Below are positions 43,521 to 53,531 of a stretch of 53,531 bases of DNA, in pieces. The position numbers and the translations under genes were made by a program. The notes beneath the pieces were generated by a model that saw only the letters and a program-made list of their open reading frames with translations, made no database searches and had not been told where the DNA came from. How positions within the stretch are numbered: the first letter of the stretch is position 1; each line of letters opens with the position of its first letter. Where the stretch lies: NCBI GenBank assembly GCA_947452755.1, contig CANGDT010000006.1, positions 1 through 53,531 of the forward strand, given 5' to 3'. The stretch is from Actinomycetota bacterium (lineage in GTDB: Bacteria > Actinomycetota > Actinomycetes > S36-B12 > UBA5976).

Positions 43521-44726
43521 TTACGCGTCACCCATTAGTTCTTTACGCAACTTCATCAACGTTGACGTTAAACCAATTCCCACAACACCAACGAGTTTGC
43601 CCCCGCGGTAGTAACCCATTACGAGTTCGCCGCCAATTGAACCCTCGATGATTGCAATTTCGTCAGCAAGGGCCGGCATGCCGAAACCTTGAATCTTGAG
43701 GTCGTACTGATCTGACCAGAACGACGGCATCGGCGTGAACGGCTGTGCAACCAGTTCGTCATAGCCTTCACCACTGAGGTAAGCATTGAGAACTGGCCCA
43801 ACTCGCTTGCCAGTTTCAGTAGGAATGTTCCAATGTTCAATTCGACGTGCAACGTCATCAAAAAGTGGATTGGCGAATCGAGCCAAGTCGCCAACAACAT
43901 GAACGCCATCAACAGAGTTACCGTCAACGGTGACCGCGCGCAAAGCCCGGTCTGCCAACACGCCATTACTCAAATCAAGGTTTGTGTTGTTCAGCCATTC
44001 GGTATTGCAATGTGAGCTGATTGCCTCAACTAATACGTCAGCTGGGAGCAGTTCGCCGTCATCAAGCAAAACGCCTGTGAGTGCGCCGTCACCTTCAAGG
44101 TCGGCAATGCCACGACGCAGGCGGAACTGCACGCCATGAGTTTCGTGCCGAGCCTGAAGATCGGCTGCAAAAGTAGGTCCCAGTGGCCGAACCATTGGAT
44201 ATTCATCAATGGCAACGGCCGTGACTTCGCAACCTAACCCGCGTGCAGTCGCCGCTACTTCGCATCCGATAAATCCAGCACCGGCAACGACAACTCGAGC
44301 ACCTGGAACAAGAGCTGCACGCAAGCCAATTGCATCATCCAAACTGCGCACGGTGTGCCGACCTGTGACGTTTCCGTTTGGCACATCCAGTCGACGCGGT
44401 CGTAAACCTGAAGCAATCACAAGTCCGTCGTAGCTAAACGTTTCACCATCATCAGTGGTTACTGTTTTGGCATCAAGATTGGCATCAACAACCGGTGAAC
44501 CAAACTTCCACACAACATCCGCAGTTTGTTGACGCTGTTTAAACGCCACGGCTTCGTGTGTCACTTCTTTCGCCAACACTTCTTTTGACAACGGAGGACG
44601 GTTATAAGGAGCGTGTGATTCATCGCCGATAACAGCGATGTTGTCGGTAAAGCCAGCATTGCGCAGGGCTTCAGCGGTACGCAGCCCACCCATGGATGCG
44701 CCGACAATGACTACTGACTTGGACAT
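43521..44726 (-). CDS. NAD(P)/FAD-dependent ferredoxin reductase
   Basis: GASMGG, YNRPPLSK, GAGFIGCE, RIEHW, FWSDQYD. Confidence 0.92.
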   Translation of the reverse strand: MSKSVVIVGASMGGLRTAEALRNAGFTDNIAVIGDESHAPYNRPPLSKEVLAKEVTHEAVAFKQRQQTADVVWKFGSPVVDANLDAKTVTTDDGETFSYDGLVIASGLRPRRLDVPNGNVTGRHTVRSLDDAIGLRAALVPGARVVVAGAGFIGCEVAATARGLGCEVTAVAIDEYPMVRPLGPTFAADLQARHETHGVQFRLRRGIADLEGDGALTGVLLDDGELLPADVLVEAISSHCNTEWLNNTNLDLSNGVLADRALRAVTVDGNSVDGVHVVGDLARFANPLFDDVARRIEHWNIPTETGKRVGPVLNAYLSGEGYDELVAQPFTPMPSFWSDQYDLKIQGFGMPALADEIAIIEGSIGGELVMGYYRGGKLVGVVGIGLTSTLMKLRKELMGDA

Positions 44727-44762
44727 GCGAACTCCCTAAACGACGGATGACTGCTGGGGAAA

Positions 44763-44954
44763 TTAATCTTGCAGGACGATAGCTTGCATTGGGCACACGT
44801 CAATTGCACTTTCGATATCAGTGCGACGGCTGTCATCGGCAGTGGCAACGTATTCCAACTTGTCGTCATCGTTGAGCTTGAAGATGTCTGGCGCTTCAAA
44901 AACACACTGACCGTAATGCTGGCACTTTTCCATATCGACGTAGATTTTGAGCAT
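44763..44954 (-). CDS. Small 3Fe-4S-type ferredoxin (P450 partner)
   Basis: CQHYGQC...APDIF...CPMQAI. Confidence 0.9.
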   Translation of the reverse strand: MLKIYVDMEKCQHYGQCVFEAPDIFKLNDDDKLEYVATADDSRRTDIESAIDVCPMQAIVLQD

Positions 44955-45832
44955 TAGTTCTTCTCCTCAACAGTTGATGGGTACAGGTCTTTCGATGGTG
45001 TGCGAATTCCGCGGAACTCCCAGTCGCCACCCATTGCGGTGGATACAACTTCTTCGCTTTCGGTCGGCTGTGCGCCAACGTCTGTGCGGATTGCCGTAGG
45101 TCCAGTGACGATTGTGTTTGTTAACTTGCCGAGTCCTTCGACTTCAACTTCAACAACGTCGCCTGGTTGAACTGGTCGTGAGTTTGCTGGTGTTCCACTG
45201 AACAAAATGTCGCCAGGAACCAATGTGATGGTGCGCGCAATATCGGCGACCAAGTAATTCATGTCCCACTCCATGTTGCTGGTGTTGTCGTCTTGTTTCA
45301 CTTCACCATTAACGAGTGTGCGAATTTGTTTGCCACGGAAATCCCAGTCTGTGATCAGGCCCGGGCCGACAGGTGCGAGTGTGTCGCTGCCTTTGACGCG
45401 CAACATTGATCCTGCATCGGTATCGCGGAAATCGTGTAGACCGTAATCATTTCCGATTGTGTAGCCCGCGATGTAGTCGCCAGCTTCATCTGGGCTGATG
45501 TTGCGACAGATGCGACCGATAACGATGACAATCTCACCTTCGTAGTTCAGCCACTTGCATCCCTGTGGGCGCACGATGTTTCCGTTGTGGCTGTTCAGTG
45601 CTGTGATTGGCTTGTGAAAGTACGTTGGCGCAGCAGGAAGTTTTGTCATGAACTCCTTGGTGCGGCTGTCGTAGTTCAAATGCACAGCAATGATTTTGGT
45701 TGGCTCTGAAGGAGGCAAGTGAATCGCATCTGCGATTGCAACTTCACGACCATCAGGAGCCACCAAGGTGTCACCGTGACGAATTGTCTGGACGGCATAA
45801 CCATCCAACAGAATGCGGCGATACTCAGCCAC
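44954..45832 (-). CDS. Fumarylacetoacetate hydrolase family protein (HpaG-like)
   Basis: KIIAVHLNY, NYEGE, GND, RVKGSDT, TLVPGDILFSGTP; GTG start with GGAGGT RBS. Confidence 0.9.
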   Translation of the reverse strand: MAEYRRILLDGYAVQTIRHGDTLVAPDGREVAIADAIHLPPSEPTKIIAVHLNYDSRTKEFMTKLPAAPTYFHKPITALNSHNGNIVRPQGCKWLNYEGEIVIVIGRICRNISPDEAGDYIAGYTIGNDYGLHDFRDTDAGSMLRVKGSDTLAPVGPGLITDWDFRGKQIRTLVNGEVKQDDNTSNMEWDMNYLVADIARTITLVPGDILFSGTPANSRPVQPGDVVEVEVEGLGKLTNTIVTGPTAIRTDVGAQPTESEEVVSTAMGGDWEFRGIRTPSKDLYPSTVEEKN

Positions 45833-46733
45833 GCGATACCTCCGGGTGTTTGACGGCTGGGAAGCCGCCTTCTGGGGCATCGAACCATAGGTGAACTTGG
45901 CCCGTGCCGATTGAGTTTTCGTAGTCGCCGTATTGACGACCCTTTGCAGTGTTGTCACCTTCGCCAGTTGCGCCGTGCATCATCATGGCGTGACCGTATC
46001 GAGCTTCTGGCTTGAACTTATGGAAAGCCGGCATGGTGTCCAAGACTTTGGCGTGATCACCGTTCTTGTACCACTCGATGCGCTCTTCGTCTGCTGCGCG
46101 AGCTTCAGGAGTAAAGATGCTCGTGAGGTCTGCGGATTCGTGTTTGCGCAATTCGCGAAGTGGCCAGAACGTGTGTGACAGCGCACCTGAGGCAATCAAC
46201 AGAACTTTGCGGTCCGAGTTTGCAACTGCTTCGCCAACAGCACGACCTAAACGTAAGTTGTCTTCGTCATCACCTGTTTGGCACATGCCAATGCTGATCC
46301 AGTTCTTGTCTAGGCCCTTGCCAAGGAATGACCATAAATTCAATGTTGCGTAGAACGTTGGCAAGTGTGGATTGTCGATTGGCGTGATCCAGGTGCCGTG
46401 CTTTTCCCCAAGGTCAGCAATTTGCTTAGCTAGTTCGGGATCACCTTTCCAGTCGTACGGCACCGACGACATGCCGCGAGGTAGTTCTTCACTGGTGTAG
46501 AAACCAGTGCGGTGATCGTGTGAGGTGACGACGTATTCAACAGTGGTTGCCCAATGTGAATCGAAGACGATGACTGTGTCGTAGTCAGCGGTTTCAAAAA
46601 CGTCTTTGCGCAACTGTGTGAGCGCAGGACCGAGTGTGAAATCTTTGCCGTTGTTTAATTCACGACGAATATCTTCCGGCAACATGATTGTCGGTACGTG
46701 AGCAAGGATTCCTGCTCCAACAATTTCTCCCAT
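45825..46733 (-). CDS. LigB-type extradiol dioxygenase (HpaD-like)
   Basis: AHVPT, FDSHW, GDPELA, ASGALSH, YENSIGTGQ. Confidence 0.85.
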   Translation of the reverse strand: MGEIVGAGILAHVPTIMLPEDIRRELNNGKDFTLGPALTQLRKDVFETADYDTVIVFDSHWATTVEYVVTSHDHRTGFYTSEELPRGMSSVPYDWKGDPELAKQIADLGEKHGTWITPIDNPHLPTFYATLNLWSFLGKGLDKNWISIGMCQTGDDEDNLRLGRAVGEAVANSDRKVLLIASGALSHTFWPLRELRKHESADLTSIFTPEARAADEERIEWYKNGDHAKVLDTMPAFHKFKPEARYGHAMMMHGATGEGDNTAKGRQYGDYENSIGTGQVHLWFDAPEGGFPAVKHPEVSRG

Positions 46734-46735
46734 GA

Positions 46736-48199
46736 TTATTCCTTCCATCCATTCGGCGCAAAGACGGTGTTCTTTACGTCGGCGTAAAAATCAAATGACC
46801 AGATGCCACCTTCGCGACCAATTCCGGATTTCTTCGAGCCACCAAATGGTGCACCGAGATCGCGGACGAAGAAGCAGTTCACCCAGACTGTGCCGGCAAC
46901 GAGATGTTCGGTGATTGCTTCGGCGCGAGCCTTGTCGCCGCAAATCAACACTGCAGCCAAGCCGAATTCGGTGTCGTTTGCCATCTGGATTGCTTGCTCG
47001 TCAGTATCGAATTGCTGCATAACCAAAACGGGTCCGAATACTTCCTGGGTCGCAATTTCGCTACCAGGCGTGGGGTTATCGATCAGCGTGGGCTTGAAGA
47101 AATTGCCACCAAGGTCAGCGTTGGGGCCGCCGCCCATCACAATGTTTTGCCCTTCACTAGCAGCGCGGTCAACGAATCCTTTGACGCGAGCGAAATGATC
47201 AGGATGCACCTGTGGCCCAATGTCAGTTTCTAGGTCGCGCGGATCACCTTGCTTGATCTGTTGTGCCTTTTCGATGAATGCAGCCTTGAAAGCATCGGCG
47301 ATTCCACGTTGTACAAGTATGCGCGTGCCCGACAAGCACACTTGGCCGGCATTGTCGTATTGCTCGACGGCAACTGTGACGGCGATGTCCAGGTCGGCAT
47401 CGTCGGTGATGATGAGCGGGCTTTTGCCACCAAGTTCAAATGAACATGGAACCAAGTTGTCAGCCGCAGCCCTAGCCACCAACTTTGCAGTCGGAACTGA
47501 GCCAGTAAATGAAATACGCGACAGGTCAGGATGTGACGTGAGTGCAGCACCTGCTTCTTCGCCGTAACCTTGCACAACGTTGAACACACCGGGTGGCATT
47601 CCAGCTTCGACTGTGATGTCGGCCAAGAGTGATGCAGTCAGCGGCGTCCACTCGGGTGGTTTTGCAACGACTGTGTCACCAGCTGCAAGGGCAGGGCCGA
47701 TTCGCCAAGTTGCCAACATCAATGGCGCATTCCACGGGGTGATGACACCGACCACACCGGTTGGATCCCACGTGACGTGATTGCGATGTCCGCGCGTATC
47801 AAAATCTGGATAGGACAGTTGATTCATCGCATAGTCGGCAAAGAAACGGAAGTTCATTGCAACACGCGGCATCACACCACGACGGTGTGATCGCAATAGT
47901 GAACCGTTGTCAGTTGTTTCCACAATGGAAAGTTCTTCGATGCGCTCTTCTACAAGGTCAGCAACGCGATGCAAAATTACGCCGCGTTCTTGTGGTGTCA
48001 TTTTGGACCAGATTGGGAACGCAGCTTTTGCCGCAGCCATGGCCATGTCGACTTCACGTTTGCCACCACGATGAATGTCGGCAAGGAATGCTCCGTCGAT
48101 TGGGGAGTGATCTGGGAAGGTTTCGGCGGATTCGACACGTTCTCCACCAATGAAATGGCGGGTGTCGACCTCAACGCCAGCAACAATTGCCTTGGTCAT
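46736..48199 (-). CDS. Aldehyde dehydrogenase (HpaE / 2-hydroxymuconate semialdehyde dehydrogenase-like)
   Basis: ITPWNAP, FTGS, ELGGKSP, GQVCL, EVFGP, WVNCFFVRDL, SGIGREGG. Confidence 0.9.
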   Translation of the reverse strand: MTKAIVAGVEVDTRHFIGGERVESAETFPDHSPIDGAFLADIHRGGKREVDMAMAAAKAAFPIWSKMTPQERGVILHRVADLVEERIEELSIVETTDNGSLLRSHRRGVMPRVAMNFRFFADYAMNQLSYPDFDTRGHRNHVTWDPTGVVGVITPWNAPLMLATWRIGPALAAGDTVVAKPPEWTPLTASLLADITVEAGMPPGVFNVVQGYGEEAGAALTSHPDLSRISFTGSVPTAKLVARAAADNLVPCSFELGGKSPLIITDDADLDIAVTVAVEQYDNAGQVCLSGTRILVQRGIADAFKAAFIEKAQQIKQGDPRDLETDIGPQVHPDHFARVKGFVDRAASEGQNIVMGGGPNADLGGNFFKPTLIDNPTPGSEIATQEVFGPVLVMQQFDTDEQAIQMANDTEFGLAAVLICGDKARAEAITEHLVAGTVWVNCFFVRDLGAPFGGSKKSGIGREGGIWSFDFYADVKNTVFAPNGWKE

Positions 48200-48213
48200 G
48201 TGTTCCCCTGAAT

Positions 48214-48233
48214 ATCGTTCGGATACTAACGAA
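48214..48233. promoter_or_regulatory. Putative MarR operator A
   Basis: ATCGTTCGGATACTAACGAA, imperfect palindrome 15 nt upstream of the aldehyde dehydrogenase start. Confidence 0.7.
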
Positions 48234-48297
48234 ATACGATACGTTACATACGGTAATTTGGGAACCAGATTTCCGATATTTCTTTAGGCAGGTATCC

Positions 48298-48978
48298 GTG
48301 ACTCAGCGCCCTCGAATCGCCCTTTTGGGTCGTTTTACCAACTCGGCCTCAGCCTTGCGCTACGCAGGCGTGGTCAGTTCCCGTGCGCTGCTTGAAGGTC
48401 TGTGGAATGCCGGAGCCGATCCGGTGACGTTGCTACCCGCTTTGGATAGCAACTGGGCGGAACGGCTTCTGGGTTTTGATGGAGTTTTATTGGCCGGAGG
48501 TGGGGACATCAATCCAGCTCGTTACGGTCAGGAACCTGACGAATCGGTTTATGACGTCGATGACCTCCAGGACCAGGCTGATTTCGAGTTGACGGAATAC
48601 GTTCTCGGACAAGGCATCCCGACGTTAGCGGTGTGCCGAGGTATGCACGTGGTCAATGTTGTGCGTGGAGGAACATTGATTCAAGATATGCCCGTCAACC
48701 ATCGCAACCATGTGCATCAGGTGAAAGTCACGAATCACGAGGCTTTCGGTTTCAGTGATGAAGTCATTACCGCGTCGTGTTATCACCACCAGGCAATTGA
48801 TCAATTGGGGTCAGGTCTGACGATCGAGGGTCGTGCGGAAGATGGCACGGTTGAAGCGATGTCGATTGCGGCCAATGGTTGGGCATATGGGGTTCAGTTT
48901 CATCCTGAAGACACGGCAGCTAGTGATGTAAACCAAAGTGGCCTGCTTGCGGAACTTGTGAAGCAAGCAAGTAAATAA
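48298..48978 (+). CDS. Gamma-glutamyl-amide hydrolase (PuuD / peptidase C26-like)
   Basis: LAGGGDINP, AVCRGM, GGTLIQD, HHQA, VQFHPE. Confidence 0.9.
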   Translation: MTQRPRIALLGRFTNSASALRYAGVVSSRALLEGLWNAGADPVTLLPALDSNWAERLLGFDGVLLAGGGDINPARYGQEPDESVYDVDDLQDQADFELTEYVLGQGIPTLAVCRGMHVVNVVRGGTLIQDMPVNHRNHVHQVKVTNHEAFGFSDEVITASCYHHQAIDQLGSGLTIEGRAEDGTVEAMSIAANGWAYGVQFHPEDTAASDVNQSGLLAELVKQASK

Positions 48979-49016
48979 CGGTTGCGGAACTTGTGAAGCA
49001 AGCAGGTAGTTAACGT
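48947..49016. repeat. 35-bp tandem duplication of the gene 3' end
   Basis: TTGCGGAACTTGTGAAGCAAGCAAGTAAATAACGG then TTGCGGAACTTGTGAAGCAAGCAGGTAGTTAACGT (31/35 identical). Confidence 0.92.
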
Positions 49017-49517
49017 TTAGCGGTCCGCTTCGACTGTTTTGGTCACAGCGCGCAGCATTTCTGCGAGCGGGCCAAGGTCTTTCCGGTCAAGGTCGGCGAT
49101 GGCGAGGCGTTCGCCTTTATTGAATTCGGGGAACAGGGTGTGCATCATTTTGCGTCCCTTTGCGGTGAGGCGAACCAGTACGAGTCGACCGTCTTCGGTG
49201 CTGCGCTTGCGGGTTACTAGACCGCGGCCTTCGAGTGTTTGTAGGACTCCGGTGAGTGTGGCTTTTGAGAATCCGCCTTCTTCGGCGATTGTGCGGGTTT
49301 CGACGGGTTCCCAGATCCAGACGACCCATAGCACTACAAAAGCGGTCCAGGACAAATCATTTTCGGCTAGAACTGTTCGTTCAAGGTAGTTGCGCACTGC
49401 GTTGGCGGCCCGGAACAGGTTTGAGGTGACTGCCATTGCTTCGAAGTCGATTTTGAGGTCACCGAGACGCTCCTGAACTTGGCGTTCAGTTTCATCGAGC
49501 GTGTGTTGACCAGCCAT
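49017..49517 (-). CDS. MarR family transcriptional regulator
   Basis: LSWTAFVVL, SKATLTGVLQTLEGRGLVTR...DGRLVLVRLTAKG. Confidence 0.92.
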   Translation of the reverse strand: MAGQHTLDETERQVQERLGDLKIDFEAMAVTSNLFRAANAVRNYLERTVLAENDLSWTAFVVLWVVWIWEPVETRTIAEEGGFSKATLTGVLQTLEGRGLVTRKRSTEDGRLVLVRLTAKGRKMMHTLFPEFNKGERLAIADLDRKDLGPLAEMLRAVTKTVEADR

Positions 49518-49604
49518 TTGAACCTCAATCTTCGGGTATTTCAAATAATCCTAGTCCGCTTGGCGAAAATGCCCCCAAGAAAATTGGAAATGAGGTAACT
49601 TCTT

Positions 49605-49624
49605 ATTGTTCGTATCCGAACGAT
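49605..49624. promoter_or_regulatory. Putative MarR operator B
   Basis: ATTGTTCGTATCCGAACGAT; reverse complement matches site A at 17/20. Confidence 0.7.
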
Positions 49625-49653
49625 TATTCGATCGTCACGTGTGAGGTAGGGCA

Positions 49654-50904
49654 ATGTCAACGACGACAAACATCAGCTTGGCTGACATGAGTATTTTTGA
49701 GCGCGAAATCCCCTGGGGAGTTTTCGATGAACTGCGCACCAATGCTCCCGTGCACTGGAGTGACGAACCGACTCCAAATAAGGGATTCTGGTCACTCACC
49801 GGATACAGCGATATCGTTTCGGTCCTTCGTGACACCGACACCTACTCGAGCGAACGCGGCGCAGTCACGTTGGAAGAGCTTGAGCCCGATGAACTCGAAG
49901 CACGTAAGTCCATGATCGACACTGACGGTTTGCGTCACCGCGCATTGCGCAAACTGATGCAAGACTCGTTCACGCCGCGCGCAGTTGCTGGGTATGAAAC
50001 ATTCCTTCGCGGGTTGACTGCATCAACGTTGGACACGGCCTTTGCATTAGGCAAGTTTGATTTCGTTAAGGAAGTTGCTGCCGACTTCCCAATTCGCGTG
50101 TTGGCAAAGTTGCTTGACGTTCCAGATTCTGACATCGGTCAATTGATCGAGTGGGGTAACCGCATGGTTGGCAACACTGATCCAGAACATGCCGACGTGT
50201 TGTTGGATTCACCAGAATCCGAGAAGTACCGCTTGCTTCCATTCCGTTCACCCGCAGCACTTGAGTTGTGGGCCTACGGCGACGAGCTTGCCCGTCAACG
50301 TAAGGGCGGAAGCGGCAAAGACATCGTGTCAACAATGATCAACCAGACACCGATTGATGGCGTCCCGTTGTCCGAACGTGATTTCCATGCCTACTTCCTG
50401 CTTCTAGTTGTGGCCGGAAACGAAACAACACGTCACACCATCAGCCACAGCATGAATTACTTGATCGACAATCCTGACCAGATGGCGTTGTTGCAAGAAA
50501 AGCCTGAATTGATTGATTGGGCTGTCGAAGAAATGCTGCGCATGGCTAGCCCGGTGTATCACTTCCGTCGTACTGCGATGAAGGACACTGAAATTCGCGG
50601 ACAGAAAATCAAGGAAGGCGACAAGGTCGTCACGTGGTTTGCTGCGGGAAATCGTGATCCTGAAATTTTCAAGGATCCTTACAAGATGGACGTCACCCGT
50701 AGCCCGAACGAACATATGACCTTTGGTCGCGGTGGACCGCATTTGTGCTTGGGCAACGCGCTTGCACGTTTGGAAATCAAGATCATGTTCCAAGAGCTCT
50801 TGCCACGCATTTCAGACATCAAACGCACTGGCGAAGTTGATCGCTTGCGTAGCAACATCATCAACGGCATTAAGCGTTTCCCAGTGGAAGTTACTCTGAA
50901 GTAA
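49654..50904 (+). CDS. Cytochrome P450
   Basis: AGNETT I-helix, EEMLR, FGRGGPHLCLG heme-binding motif. Confidence 0.96.
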   Translation: MSTTTNISLADMSIFEREIPWGVFDELRTNAPVHWSDEPTPNKGFWSLTGYSDIVSVLRDTDTYSSERGAVTLEELEPDELEARKSMIDTDGLRHRALRKLMQDSFTPRAVAGYETFLRGLTASTLDTAFALGKFDFVKEVAADFPIRVLAKLLDVPDSDIGQLIEWGNRMVGNTDPEHADVLLDSPESEKYRLLPFRSPAALELWAYGDELARQRKGGSGKDIVSTMINQTPIDGVPLSERDFHAYFLLLVVAGNETTRHTISHSMNYLIDNPDQMALLQEKPELIDWAVEEMLRMASPVYHFRRTAMKDTEIRGQKIKEGDKVVTWFAAGNRDPEIFKDPYKMDVTRSPNEHMTFGRGGPHLCLGNALARLEIKIMFQELLPRISDIKRTGEVDRLRSNIINGIKRFPVEVTLK

Positions 50905-50912
50905 TTGAGCGC

Positions 50913-50955
50913 ATAAAAAAGTGGCCCAGCGCAATGTGCTGTGCCACTTTTTTAT
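50913..50955. terminator. Bidirectional terminator
   Basis: ATAAAAAAGTGGCCCAGC...GCTGTGCCACTTTTTTAT between convergent genes. Confidence 0.85.
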
Positions 50956-50959
50956 TTCA

Positions 50960-51667
50960 CTAAATCAATTTTGCGACATCGCGTAGAAACGCATCGACAA
51001 GCTCGTTCACGCGGGTGAGTGCCTTGTCCTGTTCGGCACGGGTGTGAGCGACCAGCGCATCGGGATCTTGGCCGTCTTCTGCCACCAGGGCGCGACCCCC
51101 GTTGCCGTACCAACCGAGCAGCATGTCTTCGGTGAGCTCTGGGTGGAATTGCACACCGAGGCTACGTTCGTATGTGAATGCTTGGCTTGCTGAAGAATTG
51201 CGGGCAATTTCGGTTGCTACGGGCGGAAGTGTCCAGCGATCGTAGTGAAATTCAAACCATGGTCCGTCGCTGACAATGTCTGGTCGGTCTGAGTGAATGG
51301 CTGTCCAACCAATTTCAGGCTTAGGCGCCCGAGTTACCGAACCGCCCAGCACGCGGGCCAACAGCTGGCCACCAAAACAAATACCGAATACCGCAACATC
51401 GTTATCGAGGGCTTGCTGAATAAATTCCAGTTCGCCGCTGAGCCAGTTGCCAATGGAGGCATCATCCCAAGCACCCCAGGGTGCACCCATAGGGACGACC
51501 ACATCGAAGTCGGTCGGATCGGGGAATTCAAAATCAATATTTGGGGTATCGAATTTGTCGGCCGGTACAACCAGTGTGCGCACAACCTCAAAACCGTGGT
51601 GGGCAAATCGTTCTGCCACCGGTCCAGGCGGACTGACATGGTCGTGCTCGATTATCAGAACCCGCAT
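50960..51667 (-). CDS. Class I glutamine amidotransferase-like protein (probable gamma-glutamyl hydrolase)
   Basis: PMGAP, GICFGGQ, EIGW, VQFHPE (Cys-His-Glu triad). Confidence 0.88.
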   Translation of the reverse strand: MRVLIIEHDHVSPPGPVAERFAHHGFEVVRTLVVPADKFDTPNIDFEFPDPTDFDVVVPMGAPWGAWDDASIGNWLSGELEFIQQALDNDVAVFGICFGGQLLARVLGGSVTRAPKPEIGWTAIHSDRPDIVSDGPWFEFHYDRWTLPPVATEIARNSSASQAFTYERSLGVQFHPELTEDMLLGWYGNGGRALVAEDGQDPDALVAHTRAEQDKALTRVNELVDAFLRDVAKLI

Positions 51668-51747
51668 AAACCCGTCCTTGCAATAACGTAACCAAATTTT
51701 TCCCTATTTTGCCCTAGTTGGGGTCGGTTTGCGTCTAGTATCAGAAA

Positions 51748-51767
51748 ATCGTTCCGACCCTAACGAT
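51748..51767. promoter_or_regulatory. Putative MarR operator C
   Basis: ATCGTTCCGACCCTAACGAT, 16/20 match to site A, just upstream of the RBS of the GS-like gene. Confidence 0.7.
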
Positions 51768-51782
51768 TATCTCGGAGGACCA

Positions 51783-53129
51783 ATGGCGCTCGACCTGACT
51801 GCACTGCGCAAAGACCTGCAGAGCAAGAACATTGATGTGTTGCGTTTGATTTATGCAGACGTTCTCGGCATTACCCGATCGAAGGATTTGTTAGTTAGCC
51901 AGCTGGAAAATTCAGCCGCGCATGGCCCTGCGTTCTGTCAGGGCGTCTGGGTCACCACAACCCAAGGCGGAGTGCTCGATGGTCATGGAAGTATTTCCGA
52001 TGGCTTGTCGGACTTCGTGAGCCAGATTGTGCCAGCGAGTATTCATGAACTTCCATGGGAACCAGGTGTTGCCTATGGTGTTGCCAACGCATTCGAACCT
52101 GATGGCAGCGACAACCCAGTTGCTCCGCGTACCGCTTTACAGCGCGTACTGAATGAATACGCCGAATTGGGTTTGATCCCGGTCATTGGTACTGAACTCG
52201 AGTTCTACATTGCTGAACAAATCGAAGAACAGTGGAAGCCAATCCTTCATCGCAAGGGTCGCGTCTACACAACCGGTGCCATGGTGGATCGCGACGGATT
52301 GTTCTTGCATATGTTGCGCATGCTTGACCAAATGAATATTGGCATCTTTGCCGGTAACCACGAGTTCGCTCCGGGCCAATTTGAAATCAACATGTGGCAT
52401 GGCGAAGCAATGGAAACAACGGACCGCACATTGTTATTCAAAACTGCGCTGAAGGACATTGCAGCTCGTCGTGGATTGAACGCGACATTTCTGGGCAAGC
52501 CTTGGGCTGACTTAGAAGGTAGTGGTTTCCACTTGCACTTCTCGGTGACGGACATGAATGGCGAGAACAAAATGCATGACGGTGCTGAGTTGTCTGATAC
52601 CGCTAAGCACATGATTGCTGGCATCCTCCAGCACGCCAACGCATTGACCGCATTTGCTAACCCAACAGTCAACGCATTCAAGCGCCTTGGTCCAGACACG
52701 CTGGCACCAAGCCGGGCAAACTGGGGATATGACAACCGCGCAACAATGTTGCGTGTTCCACCAGAGCGTGGTGGCGGTACTCGCCTAGAAGTTCGCATCG
52801 GTGATGGTGCTGCAAATCCATACTTGGTTGTTGCATCTGTTCTGGCCGCTGGCCTTGATGGCATCAAGCGCAATTTGACGCCACCGGCTCATGCCGAAGG
52901 TTGGGCTTACGAAAATGAGGCAGACGCATTGTTGCCTGTGACATTTGCTGAAGCGCTGGATGCGTTGGATGCTGATCCGTTGTTCGCAGAAAAACTTGGT
53001 GCAACTGTTGTCCAGACTCACTTGACTTTGAAGCGCGATGAAATTGAGCGTTATGAAGCCGAAGTGTCTGACCCAGCTACCCGTGACATCACGGACTGGG
53101 AACTAAACGAATACATCTGGGATTTCTAA
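51783..53129 (+). CDS. Glutamine synthetase-like gamma-glutamyl-amine ligase (PuuA/IpuC/GlnA-like)
   Basis: GTELEFY, HEFAPGQFE, KP...GSGFHLHFS, NAFKRL, WGYDNR, RLEVR, ANPYL; GGAGGA RBS. Confidence 0.88.
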   Translation: MALDLTALRKDLQSKNIDVLRLIYADVLGITRSKDLLVSQLENSAAHGPAFCQGVWVTTTQGGVLDGHGSISDGLSDFVSQIVPASIHELPWEPGVAYGVANAFEPDGSDNPVAPRTALQRVLNEYAELGLIPVIGTELEFYIAEQIEEQWKPILHRKGRVYTTGAMVDRDGLFLHMLRMLDQMNIGIFAGNHEFAPGQFEINMWHGEAMETTDRTLLFKTALKDIAARRGLNATFLGKPWADLEGSGFHLHFSVTDMNGENKMHDGAELSDTAKHMIAGILQHANALTAFANPTVNAFKRLGPDTLAPSRANWGYDNRATMLRVPPERGGGTRLEVRIGDGAANPYLVVASVLAAGLDGIKRNLTPPAHAEGWAYENEADALLPVTFAEALDALDADPLFAEKLGATVVQTHLTLKRDEIERYEAEVSDPATRDITDWELNEYIWDF

Positions 53130-53139
53130 GTCTCAAAAT

Positions 53140-53176
53140 AAGTAAAGGCGACCCGATTGGGCCGCCTTTACTTTTT
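53140..53176. terminator. Bidirectional terminator
   Basis: AAGTAAAGGCGACCC-gatt-GGGCCGCCTTTACTTTTT. Confidence 0.8.
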
Positions 53177-53186
53177 AGTATTGAAA

Positions 53187-53531
53187 CTAGATTGGCTGGC
53201 TGCGATCGGCGATCAACGTCCCACCTGCGAATGTCACGCCTACTTCGCGGTAGTAGCCAGCGATGATTTCTTGGACGGGAAGGATTGAGGCAAGTTCGTC
53301 CCATTGCGAATCACCCAGAACTAATTCAGCATCGCCCTTCCAGGCTTGGCCAAGGTCAGCGTCAACTCCACCCATGGTGACGAGTTGATCCATGGTCATA
53401 CCTTTGCCACGTTCGATTGATGGCATCCAACGGTTGTGCAACATGGGGTGTCCATTAACGAAACCATTCTTTTCGACTGGTTCACGCAATGTGACGATGG
53501 CGCTTGCCAATCGGTGATCGTATGCCGACAA
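53187..53531 (-). CDS. C-terminal part of a probable acetoacetate-decarboxylase-family protein (runs off window end)
   Basis: Open frame to the window edge; HNRWMPSIE...AWKGDAELVL...ELASILPVQEIIAGYY...FAGG resembles ADC-family C-termini. Confidence 0.6.
   Translation of the reverse strand: MSAYDHRLASAIVTLREPVEKNGFVNGHPMLHNRWMPSIERGKGMTMDQLVTMGGVDADLGQAWKGDAELVLGDSQWDELASILPVQEIIAGYYREVGVTFAGGTLIADRSQPI

Follow-up and report, generated by a model that had tools for sequence, protein, structure and literature searches.

The window analysed here is a stretch of 53,531 nucleotides from an Actinomycetota bacterium (contig CANGDT010000006.1 of assembly GCA_947452755.1, positions 1 to 53,531), which forms the whole of contig C6 in a 1.73-Mb, 66-contig, 94%-complete genome of about 51% G+C. 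Its last 10 kb (positions 43521–53531) hold a candidate amine-degradation cluster, in which a glutamine synthetase (GS)-like ligase, two hydrolases of the glutamine amidotransferase (GATase) fold and a cytochrome P450 system lie beside genes for extradiol ring cleavage. The nearest named relatives are Microbacteriaceae and Nanopelagicales metagenome-assembled genomes (MAGs).

Gene content and organisation of the cluster

Gene identities were assigned by Pfam and NCBIfam profile searches, together with a list of small open reading frames (ORFs), for positions 43521–53531. On the minus strand an operon runs in the order aldehyde dehydrogenase (ALDH), LigB-type dioxygenase, FAH-family enzyme, ferredoxin and ferredoxin reductase, with gene ends that touch or overlap. 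It opens with an NAD(P)+ ALDH (46736–48199; Aldedh, E 4.3e-151) whose best NCBIfam model is the ring-fission semialdehyde dehydrogenase HpaE (514.7 bits, cut-off 638). This is followed by a class III extradiol dioxygenase of the LigB superfamily, a distant relative of HpaD (45825–46748; PF02900, E 3e-24), and by an HpaG-like enzyme of the FAH family (44954–45958; FAA_hydrolase, E 1.7e-55), presumably the decarboxylase/isomerase of the ring-fission product. The listed FAH ORF overlaps the LigB gene by 134 nt, so that its real start probably lies downstream of the listed GTG. Base 44954 is common to the FAH stop codon and the start of the gene for a 63-residue, single-cluster (3Fe/4Fe-4S type) ferredoxin (44763–44954; Fer4_15, E 1.4e-11; Fer4_13, E 1.7e-11), the presumed redox partner of the P450. 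The final gene encodes an FAD-dependent ferredoxin-NAD(P)+ reductase (43521–44726; Pyr_redox_2, E 1.3e-52, plus Reductase_C), the best NCBIfam matches of which, all under cut-off, are ferredoxin reductases of oxygenase systems.

Beyond the operon the genes alternate in orientation. A predicted γ-glutamyl-amide hydrolase of the Peptidase_C26 (PuuD-like) family comes first (48298–48978, plus strand; E 6.1e-40), with γ-glutamyl-γ-aminobutyrate (γ-glutamyl-GABA) hydrolase, PuuD, as its best NCBIfam model (60.7 bits, cut-off 266); the GTG at 48298 is its likelier start, because the listed TTG at 48187 overlaps both the ALDH start and an operator described below. A MarR-family repressor of HpaR/OhrR-like type is encoded next on the minus strand (49017–49544; MarR, E 7.1e-14), HpaR tying as the best MarR model (54.5 bits, cut-off 121.2), and its probable start is the ATG at 49520, which is preceded by a GAGG ribosome-binding site. 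It is followed by the gene for a class I P450 of the CYP125/124 clan (49654–50904, plus strand; p450, E 1.1e-24) and by that for a stand-alone class I GATase-fold hydrolase, IpuF-like by role (50960–51667, minus strand; GATase, E 2.8e-12; 91 bits against PRK07053, cut-off 250). The GS-like ligase, presumably a γ-glutamyl-amine synthetase (51784–53129, plus strand; Gln-synt_C, E 1.4e-91), is taken to start at the ATG at 51784, because GGAGGA precedes this codon and the listed TTG at 51729 would bury an operator. Last comes the 3′ part, 114 codons, of an acetoacetate decarboxylase (ADC)-superfamily gene (53187–53531, minus strand; ADC, E 2.2e-16), which is cut by the contig end and whose 5′ part is found on contig C2 of the same genome (C2:3–641; E 2.7e-42). 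A preliminary description, made from the letters alone, had listed the ligase, both GATase-fold hydrolases, the P450 system and the LigB, ALDH, FAH, ADC and MarR genes, and had placed the ferredoxin and reductase in the ring-cleavage operon; all of these genes are present, and the two electron carriers do form the 3′ end of the ALDH-LigB-FAH operon.

A shared operator

An 18-bp palindrome, TCGTTyG-N4-CrAACGA, is located at three divergent promoters and nowhere else in the window. Copy 1 (TCGTTCGGATACTAACGA; 48215–48232) lies between the ALDH operon and the C26 gene, copy 2 (TTGTTCGTATCCGAACGA; 49606–49623) between marR and the P450 gene, and copy 3 (TCGTTCCGACCCTAACGA; 51749–51766) between the GATase and GS-like genes. 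A 17-nt form, ATCGTTCSGAYMCKAAC, matches the 53.5 kb only at 48214, at 49605/49608 (one palindrome read on both strands) and at 51748; the chance expectation is 0.04, and four matches were reached in none of 100 shuffles. A looser core pattern gives 5 matches across the whole window against 2.5 expected, which is not significant, and the operator argument therefore rests on position and conservation.

Conservation was tallied by promoter position in 75 related loci (numbered below with the prefix L), and 80 loci were scanned for the presence of the motif. The site between the ALDH operon and its divergent neighbour is kept in 37 of 47 relatives, that between marR and the P450 gene in 35 of 61 (counting sites with up to one core mismatch), and that between the GATase and GS genes in 46 of 49. 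A fourth copy stands directly upstream of the ADC start on contig C2 (C2:643–660), and the site between ADC and permease genes is kept in 18 of 21 relatives. No site was detected in 12 of the 80 scanned loci; nine of these have no MarR orthologue mapped by tblastn (L061, L062, L070, L071, L073, L074, L077, L079 and L080), the other three being L003, L035 and L060. The single motif that the preliminary description had seen across the cluster thus stands up both to shuffling and to comparison with relatives, where promoters of both halves keep it. Repetition of the palindrome at the predicted regulated promoters, including that of the regulator itself, is the arrangement of a MarR-type repressor regulon, and the ligase, the P450, both hydrolases, the ring-cleavage operon with its redox partners, the ADC-like gene and a permease look like one such regulon.

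Limits of the regulon and its surroundings

The window ends in 149 bases that also form, without a mismatch, the beginning of contig C2, from which it follows that contigs C6 and C2 abut. The continuation past the window that had been suspected is real, if slight, C2 supplying the ADC 5′ part and the fourth operator. The closest relative, L056, whose P450 is 82% identical, has an APC-family permease gene after ADC and then map-adk-secY and ribosomal protein genes, which places the end of the regulon proper at the ADC and permease genes. ADC is likewise succeeded by a permease gene in L002, L005 and L025, and in L028 the permease gene comes after GS; the best match to the permease in the present genome lies 14.7 kb into C2.

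On C2 the ADC gene is succeeded by genes for a GntR regulator, an acyl-CoA dehydrogenase, a TPR protein and an RHS-repeat protein with small ORFs, and then by a second amine module. This paralogous γ-glutamyl/P450 module (C2:9146–16223, about 9–16 kb past the window end) comprises CoA-transferase III, class I GATase and GS-like ligase genes, divergent from genes for a zinc-dependent alcohol dehydrogenase (ADH), a P450 and an APC permease. Its P450, GS and GATase are 40%, 30% and 34% identical to the window proteins, and its permease is 68% identical to the permease of the L056 cluster; it looks like an aliphatic-amine version, resembling sets in Streptomycetaceae and Mesorhizobium. Between regulon and module, at C2:4336–9124, the gene for the 634-residue RHS-repeat protein and several small ORFs without a Pfam family have the appearance of a polymorphic-toxin/immunity-type insertion. 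A further group on contig C30 (C30:17500–22950) contains a GS-family gene (with Gln-synt_N_2), a class II GATase-like gene, an ORF of no family, a proline-racemase-family gene and another P450 gene; the whole 1.73-Mb genome encodes 7 members of the GS family and 5 P450s.

On the opposite side, upstream of 43521, lie housekeeping genes (asparaginase II, D-aminoacyl-tRNA deacylase and YgfZ). With a G+C content of 0.51–0.53 throughout, the idea of a compositionally foreign island was rejected. Within the cluster, the convergent P450 and GATase genes are separated by a hairpin (50913–50955; 21-nt arms, 90% complementary, with flanking runs of A and T) that resembles a two-way terminator, and a second terminator-like hairpin (53137–53176; 18-nt arms, 89% complementary) lies between the convergent GS-like and ADC genes. 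Positions 48947–49016 hold a direct tandem duplication of 35 nt (89% identity), which spans the end of the C26 gene and the spacer ahead of marR, its second copy repeating the last C26 codons and the stop region.

Co-inheritance and distribution

A scan anchored on the P450, with one genome per species, gave 75 loci, and P450 orthologues 73–98% identical to the query occupy the top 120 of 7911 matches. Upstream genes were counted where at least 6.5 kb of upstream flank was available (45 loci), downstream genes where at least 6 kb of downstream flank was available (44 loci), and the full set where both flanks were sufficient (32 loci). LigB and FAH genes are present in 38 of the 45 loci and the reductase orthologue in 36; downstream, the ligase is found in 38 of the 44, the class I GATase in 37 and ADC in 35. 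LigB, ALDH, FAH, GS and ADC occur all together in 23 of the 32. The seven loci without LigB and FAH are L021, two from Acidimicrobiaceae and four from Streptomycetaceae. Among 93 genomes of the window's own family, LigB orthologues are found in 22 and P450 orthologues in 21, such that both halves are present in 19, LigB alone in 3 (genomes 61–85% complete), the P450 alone in 2 (57% and 92% complete) and neither in 69; within the window's genus each half occurs, patchily, in 14 of 40 genomes. Related genomes are non-independent samples; nonetheless, this patchy and joint distribution fits a single functional unit. The two halves do travel together, one of the points on which the preliminary description had staked its reading.

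The set is carried by streamlined genomes of 1–2 Mb, many of them from lakes, and near-identical DNA is present in lake and freshwater metagenome runs of two studies, one of them perhaps the source itself; no RNA run was among those listed for the 10-kb stretch. Cultured carriers include Yonghaparkia sp. Root332, Blastococcus sp. CPCC 205250, Marisediminicola antarctica, Glaciihabitans sp. INWT7 and Streptomyces canus NBC_00633. On a linear plasmid of S. canus (L076), GS and P450 genes adjoin ferredoxin, reductase, ADC, ALDH, LigB, FAH and TetR genes; the same stretch encodes an additional P450, another ferredoxin, an oxidoreductase of F420 type and an APC permease, and a transposase and integrases lie alongside. 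A Novosphingobium plasmid (L078) carries MarR together with LigB (53% identical), P450 (41%), GS (33%), ALDH (50%), ADC (53%) and FAH (73%; 72–90% in relatives), plus a second ALDH and a 2Fe-2S ferredoxin. The LigB orthologue is annotated as ‘3,4-dihydroxyphenylacetate 2,3-dioxygenase’ in S. canus, where it is 65% identical to that of the window, and as ‘catechol 1,2-dioxygenase’ in Novosphingobium.

More distant modules of P450 (about 39% identical), GS and GATase are found in Ruegeria sp. TM1040, Sagittula and Mesorhizobium. The Ruegeria module (P450 39% identical) adjoins the phenylacetate genes paaABCD, which hints at arylethylamines; that of Sagittula lies among aromatic CoA and Rieske genes, and that of Mesorhizobium is accompanied by an ADH, a permease and a PuuD-like hydrolase. 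Extra oxygenases are seen in several Nanopelagicales-type or Streptomyces loci (L015, L026, L035, L076), namely a second P450 (about 50% identical), a third (about 25%) and a luciferase-like monooxygenase, the last accompanied in L026 by a flavin-reductase/LysR gene, which suggests a wider or less oxidised substrate range, for example phenethylamine. Records titled Rubrivirga, Bifidobacterium breve, Acidobacteria and Pseudomonas synxantha (L009, L013, L033, L035, L041) also carry the cluster; their P450s are 62–66% identical and nest among those of Actinomycetota in the P450 tree, and these MAG labels look wrong.

Enzymes of the front end

The GS-like ligase scores below cut-off on each of the models for type I GS (268 bits, cut-off 429), type III GS (288, cut-off 470) and γ-glutamylputrescine synthetase (258, cut-off 650), and two better GS-family matches (458 and 431 bits) are found on contig C1. 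It is thus predicted not to be a bona fide glutamine synthetase, as is expected of a ligase of the Ipu (isopropylamine) type. Both GATase-fold hydrolases keep the motifs of the Cys-His-Glu triad, with a GICFGG nucleophile elbow and HPE in the class I enzyme, and a cysteine nucleophile (AVCRG) and HPE in the C26 enzyme.

The P450 has an oxygen-activating I-helix motif (AGNETT) and a haem-thiolate loop (FGrGgPHlCLG). Its closest matches in the PDB are the reconstructed CYP125 ancestor, CYP125MRCA (E 6.3e-114), CYP125 (E 2.3e-76) and CYP124 (E 1.7e-68), and the high score to the ancestor is probably due to the consensus-like sequence of the latter. A sterol-oxidising enzyme of the CYP125 family was rejected, the neighbours being amine and aromatic catabolic genes with no cholesterol context. 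The P450, ferredoxin and reductase genes lie within 8 kb and have the same operator, such that a three-component class I system is encoded with the ligase. No ADH was found in the regulon by Pfam searches of the window and C2 genes, the zinc-dependent enzyme of the paralogous C2 module standing apart from it. Some relatives have a second ALDH with PuuC as its best model (533–581 bits, cut-off 850), adjoined by an ω-aminotransferase; this ALDH also scores well on phenylacetaldehyde dehydrogenase models.

Enzymes of the ring-cleavage back end

The LigB-type protein scores 136 bits on the HpaD_Fe model (cut-off 316). Its best solved relative is a 3,4-dihydroxyphenylacetate 2,3-dioxygenase (8iq8, E 9.9e-18), followed by β subunits of 2-aminophenol 1,6-dioxygenase (E 1.5e-8 to 3.7e-7). 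His17, His65, His192 and Glu248 are kept in 46–47 of 47 orthologues and align with the iron ligands and catalytic histidine of the solved relatives; going by structures of the LigB family, we take His17, His65 and Glu248 to be the iron ligands and His192 to be the catalytic residue. For the ALDH, the 2-hydroxymuconic semialdehyde dehydrogenase model gives 449 bits against 515 for HpaE. The FAH-family enzyme scores 219.7 bits on the generic PRK12764 FAH-family model and 196.6 on the HpaG C-terminal model (cut-off 276.4), the latter being the closest model of a named pathway. With HpaE and HpaG C-terminal scores below their cut-offs and a single FAH domain, these enzymes are relatives of the Hpa proteins and not equivalogs.

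The full-length ADC orthologue of L056 matches MppR (4jm3, E 2.8e-46) and also two entries named acetoacetate decarboxylase, presumably Sbi00515 and Swit_4259. These two proteins have pyruvate aldolase-dehydratase or hydratase activity, and on this basis the ADC-superfamily enzyme is cast as the hydratase-aldolase that the cluster otherwise lacks, a role presumed by analogy. The HpaI family (PF03328) has one weak match (27 bits), elsewhere in the genome. The cluster contains no HpaF isomerase gene, the HpaF Pfam family having been looked for in the cluster and not genome-wide. An HpaB-type hydroxylase (PF11794) has no match in the 94%-complete genome, which implies that the catechol must be made within the regulon. 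All four back-end proteins lean towards Hpa models, pointing to a catechol that bears an alkyl side chain at position 4 and so to an amine of the tyramine, dopamine or phenethylamine class.

Proposed pathway

Taken together, we read the cluster, with a probability of about one half, as a single catabolic regulon that MarR controls and that serves a biogenic aromatic amine of tyramine, dopamine or phenethylamine type, in which an Ipu-like front end is joined to a back end like that of 4-hydroxyphenylacetate (Hpa) degradation. Every chemical step, the substrate, the site of P450 attack and the timing of deglutamylation are proposals drawn from sequence. The amine would be imported by the APC-family (amino-acid-type) permease, and the GS-like ligase would join it, at the cost of ATP, to the γ-carboxyl group of glutamate. 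The P450, supplied with electrons by the ferredoxin and reductase of the ring-cleavage operon, would then oxidise the γ-glutamyl amide; we favour hydroxylation of the phenol ring to a catechol, for example of γ-glutamyl-tyramine to γ-glutamyl-dopamine. That the P450 makes or exposes the catechol for LigB is suggested by the absence of any other oxygenase from the regulon and by the predicted cotranscription of the electron carriers with the dioxygenase. The LigB-type dioxygenase would open the catechol, the HpaE-like dehydrogenase would oxidise the resulting semialdehyde, the HpaG-like enzyme would decarboxylate the product, and the ADC-like hydratase-aldolase would release pyruvate and an aldehyde bearing the side chain, which would be γ-glutamyl-4-aminobutanal if the glutamyl tag is retained. 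A finish of the Puu type, by an aldehyde dehydrogenase and the PuuD-like C26 hydrolase, could yield GABA and glutamate, with the class I GATase acting as an IpuF-like or safety-valve hydrolase. MarR is expected to act at the 18-bp palindrome and so keep the four divergent promoters repressed until it is itself bound by an intermediate of the pathway.

Retention of the glutamyl tag through ring cleavage has, in our view, at least an even chance, and late deglutamylation is at least as probable as the removal before ring cleavage that the preliminary description had proposed. On general chemical grounds, an unprotected amine would be expected to close onto the quinone or onto carbonyls formed by ring fission. 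Cleavage of the tagged catecholamine is favoured for this reason, and because γ-glutamyl-4-aminobutanal fits the PuuD-like hydrolase; it likewise fits the PuuC-like ALDH and the ω-aminotransferase that adjoin the cluster in some relatives. A bolder and more doubtful extension, which we offer tentatively, is a hitherto unrecognised ‘tag-through-cleavage’ route for a biogenic arylethylamine, common to abundant lake Actinobacteria with small genomes and to some soil Actinobacteria and Alphaproteobacteria. In this route the P450 would generate the catechol and the ring would be dismantled to pyruvate and γ-glutamyl-GABA with the nitrogen masked, the tag blocking the cyclisation that otherwise converts ring-cleaved catecholamines to dead-end heterocycles.

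Several observations weigh against this proposal. The solved relatives of the P450 (CYP125, CYP124 and CYP153) hydroxylate terminal alkyl carbons and not aromatic rings (PMC12100521), and no Hpa-, Puu- or Ipu-type model reaches its curated cut-off, such that the substrates may differ. The genome also encodes an AGAO-like copper amine oxidase (664 residues), divergent from its own APC permease (C7:47270–50960), which appears to be an independent route for primary arylalkylamines and could process tyramine or phenethylamine directly. No GATase-fold hydrolase was detected by tblastn within 19–25 kb of the S. canus and Novosphingobium plasmid clusters, so late enzymatic deglutamylation is either not universal or served there by unlinked genes. 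P450 orthologues 55–66% identical occur without ring-cleavage genes: L021 lacks these genes despite sufficient upstream flank, L020, L028 and L053 have the ferredoxin gene adjoining marR where the ALDH operon would be, the Streptomycetaceae loci show an ADH/acyl-CoA-dehydrogenase context (L070 as annotated; L071, L073 and L074 in the same order), and the two Acidimicrobiaceae loci carry the P450 alone. A quick P450 tree, in which SH-aLRT was the only support and L026 and L068 were entered with their second P450, places the loci lacking ring-cleavage genes in a few subclades. Small genomes exist in which a minimal module, made up of permease, GS, P450, ferredoxin, reductase and GATase genes, stands alone. 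In four such genomes, of unstated completeness, no ADC family member (0 of 4) and, by protein query, no orthologous LigB was detected, and ring hydroxylation there would lead nowhere; a classical LigAB gene is present in three of the four. In the one of these whose LigAB surroundings were inspected, an Aurantimicrobium-like genome, the gene lies in a protocatechuate 4,5-cleavage cluster (G003:C2:1–6400; two Amidohydro_2 genes, LigA, LigB and a LigC-like dehydrogenase). The result from the minimal-module genomes does not decide between hydroxylation of the ring and hydroxylation at the carbon next to the amide nitrogen.

Alternative explanations

Attack on that α-carbon is the main rival explanation, and one we consider unlikely. 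The P450 would form a carbinolamide that falls apart to an arylacetaldehyde and free L-glutamine, an ATP-driven oxidative deamination in which the nitrogen of the amine ends up directly in glutamine; an ALDH would convert the aldehyde to the arylacetate, dopamine would give homoprotocatechuate and, from it by way of the LigB, ALDH, FAH and ADC enzymes, pyruvate and succinic semialdehyde, and the GATases would act as a glutaminase or safety valve. Hydroxylation of an alkyl C–H bond suits the CYP125/124/153 clan, the back end is closest to enzymes acting on homoprotocatechuate itself, and the second ALDH of relatives, as noted, scores well on phenylacetaldehyde dehydrogenase models. The explanation also fits better than ring hydroxylation with the complete plasmid clusters of Streptomyces and Novosphingobium that have no GATase-fold hydrolase, with the stand-alone minimal modules lacking ADC and an orthologous LigB, which suit nitrogen scavenging, and with the position of the Ruegeria module beside paaABCD. 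However, with one P450 and no HpaB, only dopamine would reach the dioxygenase, while tyramine and phenethylamine would stall at the arylacetate; the route would spend ATP and NAD(P)H where the copper amine oxidase performs the step free of such cost, and we found no paper on a P450 that releases glutamine from a γ-glutamyl amide. A single hydroxylation would suffice were the substrate an arylamine (aniline or aminophenol type), a reading we think improbable: the γ-glutamylanilide would be hydroxylated at the ortho position by the P450, which would replace the usual Rieske dioxygenase, and deglutamylated to 2-aminophenol, LigB would act like AmnB, and the ring-fission product would pass through the ALDH, deamination, the FAH-type decarboxylase and the ADC-like hydratase-aldolase. 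The pairing of GS-like ligase and GATase is a hallmark of aniline and 1-naphthylamine clusters (PMC11335346), and the 2-aminophenol 1,6-dioxygenase β subunits are the only other solved relatives of LigB. Yet LigB, ALDH and FAH score better on Hpa models than on those of the aminophenol or catechol meta-pathways, with dmpE, for instance, at 18.9 bits, the cluster has neither a second LigB-like (AmnA-type) subunit nor a deaminase, and retention of a 12-gene set in many streamlined lake genomes speaks for a natural, common substrate rather than anilines.

It is similarly improbable that two separate pathways, a module like those for isopropylamine (Ipu) or piperidine (Pip), for an aliphatic or alicyclic amine, and an ordinary homoprotocatechuate-like pathway for a phenolic acid, simply have a neighbourhood and a regulator in common, with the ferredoxin and reductase in the second operon by historical accident. 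In its favour, the front end occurs alone or with partners of aliphatic type (zinc-dependent ADH, acyl-CoA dehydrogenase, CoA-transferase) in Streptomycetaceae, in Mesorhizobium and on C2, and the P450 belongs to a clan known for alkyl hydroxylation. A common accident of location is, however, difficult to reconcile with one conserved operator at all four promoters, with redox partners translationally linked to the FAH gene, with joint gain and loss within a genus, or with a set that stays together across two phyla and on plasmids though its gene order is shuffled; moreover, the regulon contains no other catechol-forming enzyme and the genome no HpaB. ADC-family MppR and LigB-type DOPA dioxygenases function in natural-product pathways, and MppR of enduracididine biosynthesis is the closest solved relative of the ADC-like protein, so that a biosynthetic set, for a modified amino acid or a pigment, has also to be weighed. 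We regard this as very improbable, since no nonribosomal peptide synthetase, polyketide synthase or tailoring genes lie nearby, the permease, repressor, hydrolases and semialdehyde dehydrogenase are typical of catabolism, and the carriers are streamlined genomes of 1–2 Mb. The arylamine, unrelated-module and biosynthetic readings are thus each less likely.

Novelty and significance

Full-text literature searches, which did not extend to subscription-only papers, returned no paper with this gene combination, in line with the preliminary description, to which no such characterised pathway was known, and none with γ-glutamyl-tyramine or γ-glutamyl-dopamine as a bacterial catabolic intermediate. 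The view of a glutamylated amine, a P450 and ring cleavage as one system is supported by the co-occurrence of its parts and by this literature result, whereas the aromatic nature of the substrate is what we infer. Every protein family and both types of module are already known; the new features are that the modules are fused into one regulon, that a P450 takes the position of the Rieske or flavin oxygenase and that meta-cleavage involves an enzyme of the ADC fold. If the proposal is true, the P450 would be a third type of oxygenase in the small set of γ-glutamylation-dependent amine pathways, and extradiol meta-cleavage that relies on a hydratase-aldolase of ADC fold would be a back end new to this set. 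It would explain how very abundant, genome-streamlined freshwater Actinobacteria could use aromatic biogenic amines as a source of carbon and nitrogen, and would assign first physiological roles to large, unstudied protein groups: the CYP125-clan P450, whose environmental homologues number in the thousands, a divergent clade of LigB proteins, ADC-like enzymes of family V and a clade of GS-like ligases. Since cultured carriers exist, the cluster is directly testable.

Comparison with known systems

The closest system to the front end is the Ipu pathway, which converts isopropylamine to L-alaninol in Pseudomonas sp. KIE171 and has homologous clusters on plasmids of Arthrobacter aurescens TC1. 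The A. aurescens set consists of a permease, IpuC, a P450, a ferredoxin, a reductase and an amidotransferase (PMC6776027), the multicomponent P450 acting on the glutamylated amine and the amidotransferase-fold IpuF releasing glutamate (PMC6776027, PMC1713258). The likeness to the present cluster (permease, GS-like IpuC, P450 with ferredoxin and reductase, IpuF-like hydrolase) is one of parts list (PMC6776027, PMC1713258). The Ipu substrate is a small alkylamine, which alcohol and aldehyde dehydrogenases take to alanine; here, in contrast, there is no alcohol dehydrogenase, the redox partners lie inside an extradiol operon, and one MarR operator is found throughout.

The clusters for aniline and 1-naphthylamine (Tdn/Atd, NpaA1-A5) have in common with ours γ-glutamylation by a GS-like enzyme, a GATase-fold hydrolase and an oxygenase that acts on the glutamylated amine, as described in PMC11335346. 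They use a Rieske two-component dioxygenase to form catechol or a dihydroxynaphthalene, whereas a class I P450 is encoded here and no Rieske or ring-hydroxylating dioxygenase domain was found by Pfam or NCBIfam in any cluster gene. The Puu pathway of Escherichia coli (PuuA-D) resembles the proposed route in that the γ-glutamyl tag is kept through oxidation and removed last by a Peptidase_C26 hydrolase. Unlike Puu, the cluster has no PuuB-like flavoprotein, its proteins fall well short on the PuuD and γ-glutamylputrescine synthetase models (60.7 of 266 and 258 of 650 bits, respectively), and its substrate would not be a diamine, provided that the ring-cleavage genes are read correctly. The steroid and methyl-branched-lipid ω-hydroxylases CYP125 and CYP124 are the closest solved P450s, in a gene context here that is unrelated to sterol catabolism.

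The back end is most like the Hpa/Hpc pathway of 4-hydroxyphenylacetate, with a LigB-type dioxygenase, a semialdehyde dehydrogenase, an FAH-family decarboxylase and a MarR regulator for which Hpa models are the best or joint-best among pathway-specific ones. It departs from that pathway in that all of these scores lie below the equivalog cut-offs and that a single FAH domain replaces the two-domain HpaG; an ADC-superfamily enzyme stands in place of the hydratase (HpaH) and aldolase (HpaI), and a P450 and a glutamyl ligase upstream in place of the HpaBC hydroxylase.

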